The notes beneath the pieces are model-generated. The model searched no databases. It had not been told where the DNA came from and saw only the letters and a list, made by a program, of their open reading frames with translations. Below are positions 3,733-37,656 of a DNA stretch of 64,000 nucleotides, piece after piece (positions within the stretch are counted from its first letter, which is position 1; every line of letters starts with the position of its first letter). The DNA comes from a virus, in IMG/VR virus record IMGVR_UViG_3300042914_002167; one strand, given 5' to 3'. The translations under genes were made by a program, and so were the position numbers.

Positions 3733-5056
3733 TTCTTTCGTTAGTCAACTAGATGAGTTGACTGGCGTTGCACCTAAGTCTAAGGGTGAACACAAGTTCG
3801 TTCACTCAACTTATCTCGCTCAGATCAAAGATCCAGGTGATCTAGAGAAAGTTGGTCCTGAAGAGATTGGTCCTCATGACACGAAAACAGGTTCTGGTAA
3901 GAGACCGGCAGACAGACTAGACAACAAGCAAAAGTTTGGTGAGTCAGTTGACCTAGAAGAGAACTATCGCGTACTTGCACAAAAAGGCATTGGTGCTGAA
4001 AGAAAGCAAGACATCAAGGTTGGTCACGGAGTTGACTATTATCATCCAAAAGATGGGTCTAAGCACATGGGCAAGATTCATGATATGAGTGATAAGGGAT
4101 ATACTGTCAAGGACGACAAGACTGGCGAGAAGCACAAGTTTGATTACTTCAGAAAAGAAGAAGTTGAGCATGTTGAAGAGGGAAGAGGCGCATACGATGA
4201 ACTAGCGAGGCGCATGGGCACTAGCAGCCCCGGATTCAACAAGACTCCTGCTGGCAAAGCTAGAGAACAAAAGCGCAGACAAGAACATCTAAAGGGTCAA
4301 ATGCAGTTCACTCAGAGAATGGGTGGGCTCACTGGTCCTAAGGGTAAGTTGCCAGAAGAAGTTGAACTTGAAGAGGGTTACGAAAAGGTAGTTCTCAACT
4401 TTCTAAAAAATAAAGGCATTGATGCAGATTTCAGGTATGGAAAACTTCATGTTGACAAACGCGACATGCAAAAAGCAAAGTCTGCATTAGCAAAAGCAGA
4501 TTCATTTGATGCGAAAAATTTGCAAATTGTTGCCGAAGAAGTTGAACTAGAAGAAGCCGAAATTCATAAACCAGGAACAAAAGTAAGAGTTCCACACAAC
4601 GGTAAGATGGTTTCTGGTAAAGTCGTAAGACACGATAAGGGTGACAAGCACGGAAGTCCACATTATGTCGTAGATGTGGGTGGCTATCGTTCAGAAAATA
4701 TTCCAGCACACAAAGTTCAAAAAGAAGAAGTTGAACTAGAAGAAGCCGACTTCTCCAAAGCACAGACAACAATGGCACACACAATCGGTAAATACTTCAA
4801 GAAGAAGGGTGTCGGAGACGAATCTAAAGGTGGTCCATTTGCAGTTGCATCAGCAATGGTAAGAGACAAGCCAGCTTCAGCAAAGAAAGCATACACAACA
4901 ATCAAAGCAAAGATGAAGAACGAAGATCATCAAGACATGCTAATGGCACTCTATGATTCTCTAAATGAAGAGAATCAAAGTATGTTTGAGTCTATGATTG
5001 AAACTGATCCAGAAAAACTTCTTGCTTTTGCAGAATCAGTTTTGTCTAAGGAGTAA
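3719..5056 (+). CDS. Modular internal-head polyprotein with repeated EEVELEE linkers
   Basis: Starts MKKFSSFVSQLDE; basic modules separated by ESVDLEE, EEVEHVEE and 3x EEVELEE; located inside the head operon. Confidence 0.65.
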   Translation: MKKFSSFVSQLDELTGVAPKSKGEHKFVHSTYLAQIKDPGDLEKVGPEEIGPHDTKTGSGKRPADRLDNKQKFGESVDLEENYRVLAQKGIGAERKQDIKVGHGVDYYHPKDGSKHMGKIHDMSDKGYTVKDDKTGEKHKFDYFRKEEVEHVEEGRGAYDELARRMGTSSPGFNKTPAGKAREQKRRQEHLKGQMQFTQRMGGLTGPKGKLPEEVELEEGYEKVVLNFLKNKGIDADFRYGKLHVDKRDMQKAKSALAKADSFDAKNLQIVAEEVELEEAEIHKPGTKVRVPHNGKMVSGKVVRHDKGDKHGSPHYVVDVGGYRSENIPAHKVQKEEVELEEADFSKAQTTMAHTIGKYFKKKGVGDESKGGPFAVASAMVRDKPASAKKAYTTIKAKMKNEDHQDMLMALYDSLNEENQSMFESMIETDPEKLLAFAESVLSKE

Positions 5057-5058
5057 TC

Positions 5059-5517
5059 ATGCCAGATGCAGTAACGACACAAGTTCTAAAAGATCACGCT
5101 GGTGGATATGCAGTAAAGCTAACTAACATTTCTGATGGTACAGGTGAAAATAATGTCATCAAAGTTGATGCATCTACACTTGTAGCAAACACTGGAGTTG
5201 GAGCAGAGAGACTTTCAATTACAAAATTGTTGTGGTCTGTTGCATCCGGAACATCTTCAACAATGTCACCTAGAGTTGTTCTATCTTGGGCTGGATCATC
5301 AAACACAGTTATCGCAACACTCACTGGTTCTGGATATTGGGATTTATCATCTGGTGCACAAGCTCCATTCATAAATAATGCACCAACACCAACAGGAGAT
5401 ATTCTGTTGTCTACAGCAGGCTTCACTGCAAATGCTGCATACACAGTTGTCATTGAGGGTAAGAAGGGCGCTGGTTTCGCAAGTCGTGAATCCACTGATG
5501 ATGGTATTTCACCATGA
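5059..5517 (+). CDS. Conserved head-region hypothetical/structural protein
   Basis: 152 aa, beta-rich, SD AAGGAG, between the gp67 region and gp68. Confidence 0.6.
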   Translation: MPDAVTTQVLKDHAGGYAVKLTNISDGTGENNVIKVDASTLVANTGVGAERLSITKLLWSVASGTSSTMSPRVVLSWAGSSNTVIATLTGSGYWDLSSGAQAPFINNAPTPTGDILLSTAGFTANAAYTVVIEGKKGAGFASRESTDDGISP

Positions 5518-5786
5518 TTCGTTTCAAAGAGTTCATTTCTGAAGCTAGAACGGAAAGAGTAAATCGCATCCGTCATGGTAAAATTCAGAAGAGAGTTCTT
5601 GTTAGCAGAGTTCCTGGATACAAAGTAGAAGATGGTAGACTTGTCAAGATGTCATATCAAGAGATAAGACACAGAGAAGTTGCACAGAGAAAAGCTGCTA
5701 GAAAAAGAAAAGCGATGATGAATCAAATCGTCAGAAAAATGAAGATGTCACTGAGAAAAAGAAAAACTGCGGGGTTCAACAAATGA
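5514..5786 (+). CDS. gp68: Prohead core protein gp68-like
   Basis: K/R-rich, N-terminus MIRFKEFISEA, directly upstream of gp21. Confidence 0.65.
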   Translation: MIRFKEFISEARTERVNRIRHGKIQKRVLVSRVPGYKVEDGRLVKMSYQEIRHREVAQRKAARKRKAMMNQIVRKMKMSLRKRKTAGFNK

Positions 5787-6433
5787 AACTAATCACAGAA
5801 CTGGTAGAAGATGTCAAGTATGTAACAGAAGCAACCGAAAATGGAAAGAAAAATCTTTACATTGAGGGCATCTACATGCAGGCTGAGAAACCAAATCGGA
5901 ACGGAAGAATGTATCGCATGGAGACTCTAGAAAGAGAAACAAAGCGTTACAACGAAGAGTATGTTATGAAGGGGCGCGCTTTCGGTGAATTGGGTCATCC
6001 ATCAGGACCAACCATCAATCTAGAAAGAGCATCACACTTGATCAAGTCTCTGAAATCGGAAGGCACGGACTTCTACGGTAGAGCAAAGATTCTAGACACA
6101 CCATACGGAAACATCGTAAAGAACTTGATTGATGAGGGCGCCACACTTGGCGTTTCCACTCGAGGCATGGGAAGTCTAAAAGAGGGCAAAGATGGAGTCA
6201 AGATCGTCGAAGATGATTTCTATCTCGCAACAGCAGCCGATATTGTAGCGGATCCATCAGCACCAGATGCATTCGTTCGCGGCATCATGGAAAGCAAAGA
6301 GTGGGTTTGGGATAACGGTGTCATTCGCGAAATGGACATCAATACATACAAGAATGCTATCAAGAAAGCGTCAAGTAAAGAATTGACTGAAATGAAACTA
6401 AAAGTTTTCAAAGATTTCCTAGGAAAACTTTGA
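5783..6433 (+). CDS. gp21: Prohead protease
   Basis: MKLITE, NRNGRMY, GELGHP, GVSTRGMGSL, DIVADPSAPDAFV. Confidence 0.95.
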   Translation: MKLITELVEDVKYVTEATENGKKNLYIEGIYMQAEKPNRNGRMYRMETLERETKRYNEEYVMKGRAFGELGHPSGPTINLERASHLIKSLKSEGTDFYGRAKILDTPYGNIVKNLIDEGATLGVSTRGMGSLKEGKDGVKIVEDDFYLATAADIVADPSAPDAFVRGIMESKEWVWDNGVIREMDINTYKNAIKKASSKELTEMKLKVFKDFLGKL

Positions 6434-33685: not shown

Positions 33686-33714
33686 TTGACTTTGAGTTTG
33701 GTATGGTGTATAAT
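33686..33714 (+). promoter_or_regulatory. Sigma70-like promoter
   Basis: TTGACT-17-TATAAT upstream of uvsX-N. Confidence 0.8.
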
Positions 33715-33743
33715 CAGTGATCATAAATTATGGAGTTTATTCT

Positions 33744-34664
33744 ATGAGCAATTTCTTTTCTAATCTAGTGGAACAGTTGAAAGATGAAGACACTAAAATT
33801 CTTGCAGATGGCGGAGCATCCGCTGAGTTTAGCGGTTGTATCGATACTGGGTCGTATGCTCTTAATGCTTTGCTTAGTGGCAGCATCTACGGTGGTGTAC
33901 CCAATAACAAAGTAACAGCATTCGCTGGCGAGTCTGCAACAGGCAAGACATTCTTTGTCTTAGGTGTTGTCAAGCAATTCTTGGACGACAATCCTAAAGG
34001 CGGTGTGATCTACTTTGACACTGAGGCTGCTGTCACTAAGCAGATGATGGAGTCTAAGGGTATTGATCCTAAGCGAGTTGTCATCTCTGAGCCAGACACA
34101 ATTCAAAAGTTCAGGCACACTGCACTGAAGATCATTGACACATACACAGCCCAGAAAGAATCTGATCGTCAACCAATGATGATGGTGCTTGACTCTATGG
34201 GTCAGTTGTCTTCAACGAAAGAGATGGAAGATACTTCAGAAGGCAAAGAGACTAAGGACATGACCAAGTCTCAGATTCTGAAGGCTACGTTCCGTGTTCT
34301 GAATCTGAAGCTAGCCAAGATCGGCGTTCCCCTTCTTGTCACTAATCACGTTTACGATGTTGTTGGTGCATACATTCCAACTAAGGAAATGTCTGGCGGC
34401 TGTCTAGTTGCAGGAACGAAGATTATTACAAAATATGGCTTGAGAAACATTGAAAACGTTTCAATCGACGATGAAGTTATGACAAAGGAAGGCGTTTGGA
34501 GACAAGTTCTCGATACCCATTTCTTCAACGACAAAGACATTCTTGAAATTGAGTTTGAAGATGGCACTAAAGTGAAATGCACTAAAGAGCATAAGTTCCT
34601 TGTCAATGGCGTGTGGATCGAAGCAAAGGACCTCATGACTAACGACTCGGTGGATATGGTCTAA
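33744..34664 (+). CDS. uvsX: UvsX/RecA N-extein fused to split intein N-fragment
   Basis: GESATGKT, FDTE, VLDS, VTNH...EMSGG, then CLVAGTKI...CTKEHKF (intein blocks A and B) and a stop. Confidence 0.93.
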   Translation: MSNFFSNLVEQLKDEDTKILADGGASAEFSGCIDTGSYALNALLSGSIYGGVPNNKVTAFAGESATGKTFFVLGVVKQFLDDNPKGGVIYFDTEAAVTKQMMESKGIDPKRVVISEPDTIQKFRHTALKIIDTYTAQKESDRQPMMMVLDSMGQLSSTKEMEDTSEGKETKDMTKSQILKATFRVLNLKLAKIGVPLLVTNHVYDVVGAYIPTKEMSGGCLVAGTKIITKYGLRNIENVSIDDEVMTKEGVWRQVLDTHFFNDKDILEIEFEDGTKVKCTKEHKFLVNGVWIEAKDLMTNDSVDMV

Positions 34665-34675
34665 AGTATAAAAAC

Positions 34676-34683
34676 TATAAATA
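34676..34683 (+). promoter_or_regulatory. Late promoter for the HNH and IntC genes
   Basis: TATAAATA between the IntN stop and the HNH start. Confidence 0.75.
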
Positions 34684-34712
34684 AACATGTAGCAACACCG
34701 AAAAGGAACTGC

Positions 34713-35441
34713 ATGTTTATAGATAACAAATACACCAAATGGTACATGTCAATTATAGAATCTGCCAAAACTAGAGAACGTTCGGACGAAGAATACTATG
34801 AGCGACATCATATTGTGCCAAAATCTTTGGGTGGTCGCAATAACAAAGAAAATCTTGTCAGCCTTACTGCCAGAGAACACTTTATATGTCACATGCTTCT
34901 AGTCAAAATGGTAGAGATCGCATCGTATAAGAGAAGCATGTCGTATGCGCTAATAACAATGAGCGCGTCTAATGGCGGCGCGAGGCGGCGTAAGATTTCT
35001 GCGAGAGAATTTGAGTTGGCTAAAAAAATTGCCAAGCATCACATATCAGGCGTAAACAATGGATTTTACGGAAAGGGTAAATTGATTGCAGGAGACAAAA
35101 ATCCAATGTACGGAAAACCATGCTACTATAACATGACAGAAAAAGAGAAACAGTCTTGGAAGAATGCAATATCAAAAGGCATTACTGGTGCAAAAAACCC
35201 ATTCTACGGAAAAACTCACACAGAAACCACGAAAGCAAAACTTTCGAAGCACAGATCAATACCGATTAGAGTCACATTTGATAACGGTAGCGTATTGGAG
35301 TTTGAGCAGTATAAGCACCTAGGAACGCACCTAGGGAAAAGCGGAGAGTTGGGCGCAAAGCTATGTAAAGATGAAAATAAGCACCTATTGAGTAAGTACG
35401 GAATCGTTTCGATCATCAAAATAAAAGGAACAACATCATGA
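34713..35441 (+). CDS. HNH homing endonuclease with NUMOD3-like repeats
   Basis: [26 protein letters not shown]; [21 protein letters not shown]. Confidence 0.9.
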
Positions 35442-35956
35442 AAACTATGAAGATCAAATCTATCACGAATGCAGGTAAATCTGAAGTGTACGATATCAGC
35501 GTCGATGAGTATGAGAACTACATTCTTGAAAACGGCGTCATCACACACAACTCCGGTCTCAAGTACACCGCATCTACCATTGTATATCTCAGCAAGAAGA
35601 AGGACAAAGACGGCACTGAAGTTGTTGGCAACATCATCAAGGCTAAACTCCAGAAGAGCCGATTCACCAAAGAGAATGCTTCAGTTGAGATTCGTCTGAC
35701 GTACAGCACTGGCTTGGATCGCTACTACGGTTTGCTTGAGATCGCAGAGAAGTATGAGATCATCAAGAAAGTCTCCACACGATATGAATTGCCCGATGGC
35801 AGTAAGGTCTTCGGCAAGAACATCAACGAAGAGCCTGAGAAGTATTTCACTAAGGAAGTGCTAGACAAGATTGATGCAGCATGCAAGAAAGAGTTCTTGT
35901 ATGGGCAAGGTGAAGCAAGTTCTACAAATGAGGAGACTGAAAATGGAGATGAATGA
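35438..35956 (+). CDS. uvsX: Split intein C-fragment fused to UvsX C-extein
   Basis: [19 protein letters not shown]|[21 protein letters not shown]...KSRFTKE...GLDRYYGL. Confidence 0.93.
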
Positions 35957-36278
35957 AGACTACGAAATTACTGACTCAAAATTTACATACAAAGAAGAAA
36001 ACGATTTATTTGGAGTCAGATTGTTGTCGGGTGAGTTTGCTGGTATTGAATACACATACGGCACAATCAACATGGGTGACGAGGAGAATCCAGATGGAAC
36101 ATATTCAATCTCTTTTGATTACACAGTGCGAGAAGGTAAAGTTGATGACGAAAACAAAGAAAAATTTGAAAGTGTTGTAGGTAATGTGCTAAACTCAGTT
36201 CTTCTACACAGTCTTGAAGCAGCACAGGAAAGACACAACAATGAAAATAGAAACACAGATTCTCAAGCATCTGATTGA
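35943..36278 (+). CDS. gp40: gp40-like head vertex assembly chaperone
   Basis: Position between uvsX and gp41; YTYGTI...SFDY. Confidence 0.55.
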
Positions 36279-37656
36279 CAACGAGAATTATGCCCGAAAG
36301 ACTCTTCCCTTTCTTAAGACAGATTACTTCTCTGAACAACATGAGAAAGTCATCTTTGAAGAAGTTCATCGATATGTTACTCAATACAACAGCCTACCTA
36401 CTGTATCGGCACTCAGGGTTGAACTTGAAGACAAGCCTAATCTCGTGGAATCTACTTACAAGAAGACATCACAGTTGCTTGATGAGATCAAGGAAACTGA
36501 ATGTGACATGAAGATCACGGAATGGCTTGTTGATTCTACAGAAAAATTCTGTCAAGAGAAAGCCATCTACAATGGCATTATGCAGAGCATCCAGATACTG
36601 GATAGCAAGACAGGAGAATCAAAACTTGACAAAGGCGCCATACCGAGTATCCTTGCAGATGCGTTGTCAGTCTCGTTTGACAATCATGTCGGGCATGATT
36701 TCCTAGATGATGCTGAGTCTCGCTATGAGTTCTATCATAAAGTAGAACAGCGCATTCCATTTGATCTTGAATACTTCAACAAGATCACAAAGGGTGGGCT
36801 GCCCAACAAGACACTGAACATCATTCTGGCTGGCACTGGCGTCGGCAAGTCAATGTTCATGTGTCACTGCGCAGCAGGCAATCTGACGATGGGCAAGAAC
36901 GTCCTCTACATCACACTTGAGATGGCAGAAGAGCGTATTGCTGAACGTATTGATGCGAATCTCCTGAACACTGACCTAGACAAACTTGTCTCTATGCCCA
37001 AGGATGTCTACGTCAGCAAGATTGAGAAGTTGCGCAAGAAGACAATGGGTAAGTTGATCATCAAGGAATATCCTACTGCATCAGCTAACGTGACTCACTT
37101 CAAGCATCTGCTGAATGAGTTGAAGTTGAAGCGACAGTTCATTCCAGATATCATCTACATTGACTACCTGAACATCTGCGCATCCTCTCGCATGAAGCAA
37201 GGTAACTCTGTCAATTCGTATACATTCATCAAAGCAATTGCAGAAGAACTTCGCGGGCTTGCAGTTGAGATGAAAGTTCCTGTTGTCTCAGCCACACAGA
37301 CAACGAGAAGTGGTTACGATAACACTGACGTTAGTCTTACAGACACATCAGAGTCTTTTGGTTTACCCGCGACAGCGGACTTCATGTTTGCTCTAATGTC
37401 GTCTGATGAACTCGCAGACTTGAATCAGATCATGGTCAAGCAATTGAAGAATCGGTACTCTAATCCAGACACAAACAAGAGATTTGTCATCGGCGTGGAT
37501 AAGGCAAAGATGAAACTTTACGATGTGGAACAGTCAGCACAGAACCATATCCATGATAGTGGTCAAGTTGAAGACAGTACTCCAGTCTTTGACAAGTCAG
37601 GATTTGGTAAGGGAATGCGCGCGGAGCGCAAGTTTGAGGGCTTCAAAGTGACATAG
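36241..37656 (+). CDS. gp41: Replicative DnaB-like helicase
   Basis: AGTGVGKS, TLEMAEE, IDYL, SATQ, SESFGLPATAD, KNRY. Confidence 0.97.
   Translation: MKIETQILKHLIDNENYARKTLPFLKTDYFSEQHEKVIFEEVHRYVTQYNSLPTVSALRVELEDKPNLVESTYKKTSQLLDEIKETECDMKITEWLVDSTEKFCQEKAIYNGIMQSIQILDSKTGESKLDKGAIPSILADALSVSFDNHVGHDFLDDAESRYEFYHKVEQRIPFDLEYFNKITKGGLPNKTLNIILAGTGVGKSMFMCHCAAGNLTMGKNVLYITLEMAEERIAERIDANLLNTDLDKLVSMPKDVYVSKIEKLRKKTMGKLIIKEYPTASANVTHFKHLLNELKLKRQFIPDIIYIDYLNICASSRMKQGNSVNSYTFIKAIAEELRGLAVEMKVPVVSATQTTRSGYDNTDVSLTDTSESFGLPATADFMFALMSSDELADLNQIMVKQLKNRYSNPDTNKRFVIGVDKAKMKLYDVEQSAQNHIHDSGQVEDSTPVFDKSGFGKGMRAERKFEGFKVT

Follow-up and report, generated by a model that had tools for sequence, protein, structure and literature searches.

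The fractured genes described by Dassa, London, Stoddard, Schueler-Furman and Pietrokovski (2009; PMC2677866) have gp41, IMPDH, DnaE, NrdA, NrdJ, ligase and terminase as hosts; their nucleases are of the GIY-YIG or Vsr-like types, control by a late promoter and a hairpin was noted for them, and uvsX figures there only as an intact neighbor of gp41. Here we describe a uvsX gene broken in the same manner, in a 64-kb stretch of DNA from an uncultured T4-like phage of lake water (IMG/VR record IMGVR_UViG_3300042914_002167, 64,000 nucleotides (nt); hereafter the window). The gene is in two pieces, which carry the N-terminal and C-terminal halves of an intein (IntN and IntC), and an HNH nuclease gene stands free between them. 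We judge it very probable that uvsX is genuinely fractured here, by a natural split intein whose halves are separated by an independent HNH gene; the anatomy can be read directly, and splicing and nuclease activity are predicted from it. The arrangement is already known in kind, both from other phage genes and from the uvsX of cultured T4-like phages.

The window shares with the gp41-1 locus of marine T4-like cyanophages an essential gene of DNA metabolism divided between two neighboring, co-oriented open reading frames (ORFs), one ending in IntN and the other beginning with IntC, the nuclease gene between them, a late promoter, a hairpin, and overlapping frames. The gp41-1 fragments are 88 and 37 amino acids (aa) long, with Ser at position +1. 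Those of the window resemble them at 87 and 38 aa, and gp41-1 (6qaz) is also the best match of IntN among solved structures (E 3e-5, 25-28 bits, 63 aligned residues, roughly 30% identity as counted by hand from the alignment). An earlier reading of this DNA from its letters (hereafter the sequence-only reading) had likened the layout to one described for environmental phages and the fragment sizes to gp41-1, and both likenesses stand, the former with the fractured genes of PMC2677866. The loci differ in host gene, uvsX rather than gp41, and the IntN match is weak. Assignment of the window intein as a gp41-1 allele or close family member was rejected, given the other host protein and the low IntN similarity. 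The window's own gp41 homolog (36214..37656) is intact.

Megablast of positions 33700-36000 against deposited phages gave no match, so the source is a novel uncultured phage with relatives at the protein level only. Fractured uvsX genes do occur among deposited Straboviridae: Yersinia TG1, Vibrio VmeM-32, Shewanella Thanatos-1, Proteus Pm5461, Pseudomonas PspYZU05, coliphage HY03 and Vibrio EniLVp02. Their GenBank records annotate the halves merely as two RecA-like genes. These phages are like the window in the site of the break (GG/C ... HN/S-G or HN/T-G, the slash marking an extein-intein border), in the split point (IntC begins MK.K), in homologous inteins (37-43% identity in IntN, 52-60% in IntC) and in a nuclease gene between the halves, where an ATGA overlap is frequent. 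They differ in having GIY-YIG/Seg-like nucleases, or NUMOD3 nucleases that are missed when the window HNH protein is the query, in having Thr rather than Ser at +1, and in two extra insertions within IntN. The sequence-only reading had raised the prospect of a new orthogonal split-intein tool; the novelty was overrated, as deposited genomes of cultured phages already have a break at this uvsX site and a fractured gene of the HNH type has been published (MIJ3 PolB; PMC6892783). A literature search, with subscription journals outside it, gave no published account of a split intein in uvsX, the Straboviridae cases included.

The MIJ3 case is the PolB gene of a Pseudomonas jumbo phage, in which a split intein has a free-standing HNH gene between its halves; the PolB mini-intein of Salicola phage SCTP-2 is a relative of it (PMC6892783). 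MIJ3 differs from the window in its host gene and in Ser1 (block A SVDGS) as against Cys1. In SCTP-2 gene 204 (our locus L088), which encodes a 656-aa hypothetical protein, we found a contiguous mini-intein with 40% identity in IntN and 44% in IntC. Outside uvsX, no contiguous relative from a cultured phage was closer in these alignments; gene 204 may be the PolB gene in question.

The DnaE inteins of Npu and Ssp share with the window the class-1 residues and the canonical split point, the latter indicated by the best solved-structure match of IntC, which is Npu DnaE IntC (4qfq_B, E 0.0026) aligned end to end. Their halves, however, lie far apart in the genome with no nuclease gene between them, and they have Cys+1 where the window has Ser+1. 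The DnaE IntN is also longer, at about 102 aa in Npu and 123 aa in Ssp. The nuclease of the window resembles the MobE proteins of T4, T6 and Aeh1 in sequence (30-38% identity), in the order of HNH and NUMOD3, and in being free-standing within or between genes of DNA metabolism; mobE differs in that it lies between nrd genes or splits nrdA without an intein, whereas the window gene occupies an intein split point. The control of Aeh1 mobE by a late promoter and a hairpin that sequesters the start codon, as cited in PMC2677866, resembles what we predict for the window. T4 SegA cuts uvsX (PMC2988022), so uvsX is an established nuclease target.

Anatomy of the locus

The ORF list and the sequence give uvsX as two co-oriented ORFs with the nuclease ORF between them, all on the + strand (Table 1). 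The features of a fractured gene are found here together: two adjacent co-oriented ORFs that add up to a whole uvsX, IntN and IntC at the broken ends, and a nuclease ORF with its own control region.

Table 1. Features of the fractured uvsX locus, in window coordinates
Feature	Position	Strand	Details
Sigma-70-type early-like promoter (putative)	33686..33714	+	TTGACT, 17 nt, TATAAT; 11/12 consensus matches
uvsX-N + IntN ORF	33744..34664	+	219 aa UvsX + 87-aa IntN
uvsX N-extein, 219 aa	33744..34400	+	Walker A GESATGKT; end ...PTKEMSGG; PF00154; phrog_97; 9gbg
IntN, 87 aa	34401..34664	+	Cys1 TGT 34401; block A CLVAGTKI; block B CTKEHKF; TAA 34662-34664
T4-type late promoter motif TATAAATA (putative)	34676..34683	+	In 48-nt spacer before HNH gene
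12-bp RNA hairpin (predicted)	34681..34720	+	3' arm holds HNH start codon; AAGGA ribosome site in loop
MobE-family HNH gene (predicted), free-standing, 242 aa	34713..35441	+	HNH residues 26-51; NUMOD3 residues 150-178
IntC + uvsX-C ORF	35438..35956	+	38-aa IntC + 134 aa UvsX; begins MKTMKIKS
IntC, 38 aa	35438..35551	+	Block F VYDISV; block G NGVITHN; ATG overlaps HNH stop (ATGA)
uvsX C-extein, 134 aa + stop	35552..35956	+	Ser+1 TCC 35552; SGLKYTAS; 9gbg; phrog_97

Pfam places RecA on the N ORF (7.8e-12) and divides its Intein_splicing profile between the pieces, positions 29-92 falling on the N ORF and 121-155 on the C ORF; the middle ORF matches NUMOD3 (2.1e-9) and HNH (8.7e-5). In PHROGs the N-extein is phrog_97, UvsX-like recombinase (7e-61), the C ORF matches phrog_97 and also phrog_18112, which spans IntC and extein, and the middle ORF is phrog_655, homing endonuclease (4.8e-42). 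The sequence-only reading had placed at EMSGG an 87-aa IntN (Cys1 at 34401, TKEH, stop at 34664), then an HNH/NUMOD3 gene, then a 38-aa IntC (VYDISV...THN) with Ser+1 and SGLKYTAS. All of its coordinates are right by the ORF list, the sequence and Pfam, and its call of the middle gene is borne out by both profile collections.

The N ORF has GGAG 8 nt before its ATG, and its homologs likewise begin MSNFF. The IntC ORF has AAGGA 8 nt upstream of its ATG, and that first ATG is backed by relatives beginning MKT.K.KSI. The stop codon of the nuclease gene and the start codon of IntC overlap as ATGA at 35438-35441 in the window and, by annotated coordinates, at 5646-5649, 3835-3838 and 3017-3020 of the relatives L004, L001 and L087. 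The same 4-base overlap between nuclease and IntC recurs in L004, TG1 and EniLVp02 despite unrelated nucleases (HNH in the window, GIY-YIG in TG1), which points to selection for compactness or for translational coupling at this junction. Paralogs of IntN, IntC or the HNH gene were sought within the window, and none was found there.

The break point in UvsX

The host protein belongs with UvsX/RecA by its RecA-fold ATPase core, Walker A motif, loop L2 and homology to a solved UvsX. Aligned to that structure (9gbg), N-extein residues 3-219 cover chain residues 2-218 (8.4e-83), and the C-extein, starting with Ser+1 on residue 219, covers 219-334 (1.9e-50). By these alignments the junction is seamless between residues 218 and 219, with no residue lost or gained. 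Natural empty alleles give the same picture: in 75 of the best 80 related viral contigs uvsX is uninterrupted, the C-extein match beginning at the next base after the N-extein match, and these alleles read KEMSGG SGLKY. One of them, L003, is intein-less and collinear, its exteins matching those of the window at 97% and 98% identity.

The insertion site is the C-terminal border of loop L2 (a name that we presume for UvsX from general knowledge of RecA), where a conserved GG is followed by S, T or N. One relative, P0008, a 483-aa protein whose exteins are 90% and 83% identical to those of the window, has the same intein in one piece. We modeled it by AlphaFold from alignment A2, with a mean predicted local distance difference test score (pLDDT) of 80. 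Residues 204-218 of the model, immediately before the insertion, are of low confidence, which fits a flexible L2 loop and a site at its C-terminal border. Splicing had been predicted to restore EMSGG-SGLKY in the L2-loop region; the junction is indeed exact by 9gbg and the empty alleles, but the site lies at the C-terminal border of the loop, not inside it.

Compared with L003, the joined junction of the window has 6 synonymous differences in 25 nt (34385-34409, 35552-35566), as against about 1.8 predicted by the 7.3% average over the gene. Nearly all empty alleles have AAA GAA ... TCT, while the window has AAG GAA ... TCC. Co-conversion, target immunity or degenerate codons may account for the differences from L003; the signal for the first two is weak because the Gly, Ser and Leu codons concerned are four-fold degenerate.

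This edge of the loop is not the only broken site in uvsX. In L006 (positions 4001-6123; also L028/L029 and L125-L127) a different split intein lies 11 codons upstream, reading ...YDVVG/CALAGTKI... at one border and ...GTVSHN/SYVPTKEMSGGSGLKY at the other, with an HNH gene on the opposite strand between the halves and an N-extein 86-87% identical. Two independent fractured sites with unrelated inteins thus bracket the L2 loop of uvsX. In M. leprae, the RecA intein may also be inserted close to this loop. A further variant is P0015 (365 aa, from a 5.5-kb metagenome contig), a middle piece of uvsX. About 129 aa are intein-like, with blocks B, F and G and the ending HHN, and lead into TFF at the position just behind the Walker A lysine; from there the extein extends as far as EMSGG, and an IntN of the window's family follows. 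P0015 may come from a uvsX in three pieces, with another intein inserted at the P-loop. Used as query against the viral contigs, it found nothing close.

Forms of the site and their distribution

We observed this one site in five states: empty; with a contiguous mini-intein; with a split intein lacking a nuclease gene; with a split intein and a MobE-like HNH gene; and, in cultured phages, with a split intein and a GIY-YIG gene. The contiguous form is a mini-intein of 126 aa in P0008 and L110 (3234-3611), and P0017, P0057-60 and P0051-55 have contiguous mini-inteins as well. The window halves align to that of P0008 without gaps, ...SVEQV-R-MKELKIKTITK... in the latter standing against ...SVDMV-stop in the window. 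Split forms without a nuclease gene are L107 (1219-1653), L108, L115, L122 and L123, whose spacers are 69-210 nt long and contain stops, the spacer being 69 nt in L107 and L108. The window, L004 and about 25 others have the split form with a MobE-like HNH gene. The search of IMG/VR gave about 25 uvsX loci in which an HNH gene lies between IntN and IntC, their HNH proteins 40-61% identical to the window's, and in the protein database 56 clusters match the IntN region, mostly as N fragments of about 300 aa.

In distant hosts IntN is 54-64% and IntC 68-76% identical, as against 48-57% for the exteins, and the closest extein relatives are without the cassette. Intein identity above extein identity, with the closest relatives empty, argues for horizontal movement and not vertical descent alone. 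It is quite possible, if short of probable, that in T4-like phages of fresh and marine waters the L2 edge of uvsX is a living hot spot of fractured-gene evolution, with one intein family caught in every gene-breaking stage of Dassa et al. (2009).

Logan contigs from four independent lake-water runs were compared with positions 33700-36000. Run X3 has a single contig of 4569 nt (depth 53.6) that spans 33700-35622 with 5 differences and no gaps, and contigs of runs X4 and X5, with 0-2 differences, extend over both the IntN stop and the nuclease gene. In run X6 a 1505-nt contig joins 34396 to 35561 through 13 letters, which with their flanks read M-S-G-G-S-G-L-K; this is both the empty site and the predicted spliced junction. 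The cassette allele is present in X6 as separate pieces with a depth of about 4-6, and the intein-less allele, about 96% identical in the N-extein, a depth of about 11. This one lake sample thus holds a presence/absence polymorphism inside one community, and the finding of both alleles excludes assembly error as far as contigs show.

Nuclease gene and its proposed control and mobility

The HNH domain, NUMOD3 and MobE similarity place the predicted product of the middle ORF among the MobE-family HNH homing endonucleases. It is 38% identical to MobE of Sinorhizobium phage phiN3 and 30% to MobE of T6 over most of the protein, and the motif HHI.PK..GG...N..LT.REHF is kept in all relatives.

The putative early-like promoter upstream of uvsX is the best consensus match in the scanned region. 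The late promoter motif TATAAATA before the nuclease gene is one of seven copies in the window (3481, 6456, 7240, 28346, 34676, 39525 and 43740), all on the + strand, where 1.26 would be expected by chance; the excess fits T4-type late promoter use in this phage. TATAAAT is present in nine of ten distinct readable homologous spacers, the window's own included. The predicted hairpin over the nuclease start codon has a folding energy of -15.2 kcal/mol (z -4.4), and none of 200 shuffles folds as well. L004 has an equivalent hairpin of different sequence (z -5.8), and in most readable relatives the spacer folds over the nuclease start codon. We saw no convincing terminator between the uvsX pieces.

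T4 late transcripts begin a few bases downstream of the motif. A transcript starting downstream of TATAAATA in this way would begin within the 5' arm of the hairpin, so that the hairpin could not form. The following scheme may be proposed. Early in infection the early-type promoter would transcribe all three ORFs, and in the long transcript the hairpin would hide the nuclease start codon, so that only UvsX-N-IntN (306 aa) and IntC-UvsX-C (172 aa) would be made, while recombination-dependent replication needs them. Late, transcripts from TATAAATA would lack the hairpin and the HNH nuclease would be translated. It could then cut or nick the cassette-free uvsX of co-infecting phages, and recombinational repair would spread the cassette.

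The cassette might instead be a real but settled one, in which the nuclease gene no longer encodes an active homing endonuclease and the fractured state is fixed and vertically inherited. We regard this as unlikely, though it is the alternative to be taken most seriously. Nuclease activity is predicted from motifs, and the split forms without a nuclease gene (L107, L108, L115, L122 and L123) show that the gene can be lost while the split persists. In the window, however, the HNH ORF is of full length with both the HNH motif and NUMOD3 intact, and the structure of the regulatory leader is conserved across divergent sequences. A nearly identical phage, L003, is without the cassette, both alleles occur in one lake sample, and cassette similarity does not track extein similarity; a mobile cassette with a functional nuclease is the reading that we prefer.

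Intein residues and predicted splicing

All class-1 residues are present in the window: C1, T-K-E-H in block B, VYD in block F, THN at the end of IntC, and S+1; throughout the family they are invariant or conservatively replaced. None of 21 distinct IntN sequences departs from Cys1 or from the block B His, all 35 readable loci have HN/SG at the IntC end, and the block F Asp is kept. In the AlphaFold model of P0008, a contiguous relative and not the two-chain complex of the window, residues 220-346 form an all-beta insert with mean pLDDT of 82-94 over blocks of 10 residues, and the remainder matches UvsX 9gbg with a template modeling (TM) score of 0.90. A structure search with the whole 483-aa model gave RecA/UvsX entries only among the matches listed.

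The two halves would dock as one HINT fold, and class-1 trans-splicing would proceed through Cys1, the T-x-x-H motif of block B, the Asp of block F, the His-Asn that ends IntC, and Ser+1 as nucleophile. It would yield a UvsX of 353 aa and about 39 kDa reading ...EMSGG-SGLKY..., of the same design as the intein-less alleles. The sequence-only reading had held that active recombinase requires this trans-splicing, and we too think such a need probable.

It is nevertheless conceivable that the intein halves no longer splice and only hold the UvsX pieces together as a non-covalent clamp. There is precedent for a gene that was split by a homing endonuclease gene and functions although its pieces are not covalently rejoined, namely Aeh1 NrdA around mobE as cited in PMC2677866 and PMC3045599; both intein halves of the window are acidic, and splicing is so far a prediction from sequence. 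We consider a clamp very unlikely all the same, since it would not constrain the catalytic residues, which are all present and are invariant in the 21 and 35 members across exteins only about 50% identical. In addition, the break lies in the ATPase core beside L2, where an extra domain of 125 aa would probably obstruct contacts within the filament and with DNA.

The least credible alternative, that the real element is a contiguous intein with an HNH domain and the IntN stop an error, draws on the uvsX-N/IntN and HNH ORFs sharing one frame with a single TAA between them, and can be set aside because the stop and spacer recur in independent contigs of three other studies, the IntC frame differs, L004 has its three ORFs in three different frames, about 25 loci retain the stop, the promoter/hairpin spacer and a separate start codon, and no HNH domain is present in the contiguous relatives, which are mini-inteins. 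These contigs and the homologous loci of the same layout likewise contradict an assembly error at the IntN stop, which the sequence-only reading had named as the finding that would overturn it.

Several points weigh against a split intein that splices and a cassette that moves. The opposite-charge pairing of several fast split inteins is not evident here, both halves being acidic (net charge -6 for IntN and -2 for IntC). The promoter is predicted from its consensus match and the hairpin from its folding energy. Enzymes of the MobE type can act at a long distance from the site where their genes are inserted. Finally, the lake-water runs were all compared as assembled contigs, so that rare variants and transcript starts lie below resolution.

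Implications

If this reading is correct, the family provides natural split inteins of the Ser+1 type together with contiguous counterparts that can serve as matched controls. The Cys1/Ser+1 pair of 87 and 38 aa, along with some 20 variants found in nature, would be candidates for orthogonal protein-ligation tools; many such inteins exist already, so the gain would be incremental until kinetics are known.

For phage biology, uvsX, which encodes the strand-exchange protein that homing itself depends on, joins the list of genes that split inteins have fractured, and MobE-type HNH enzymes join the nucleases seen in the fractured-gene role. The natural series at one site, together with the occurrence of both alleles in one lake sample, makes a comparative system for how contiguous inteins split and how cassettes move. 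If the HNH nuclease is active, what we see would be a split-intein cassette that is still homing as a unit, with a nuclease encoded by a separate gene driving it in trans.

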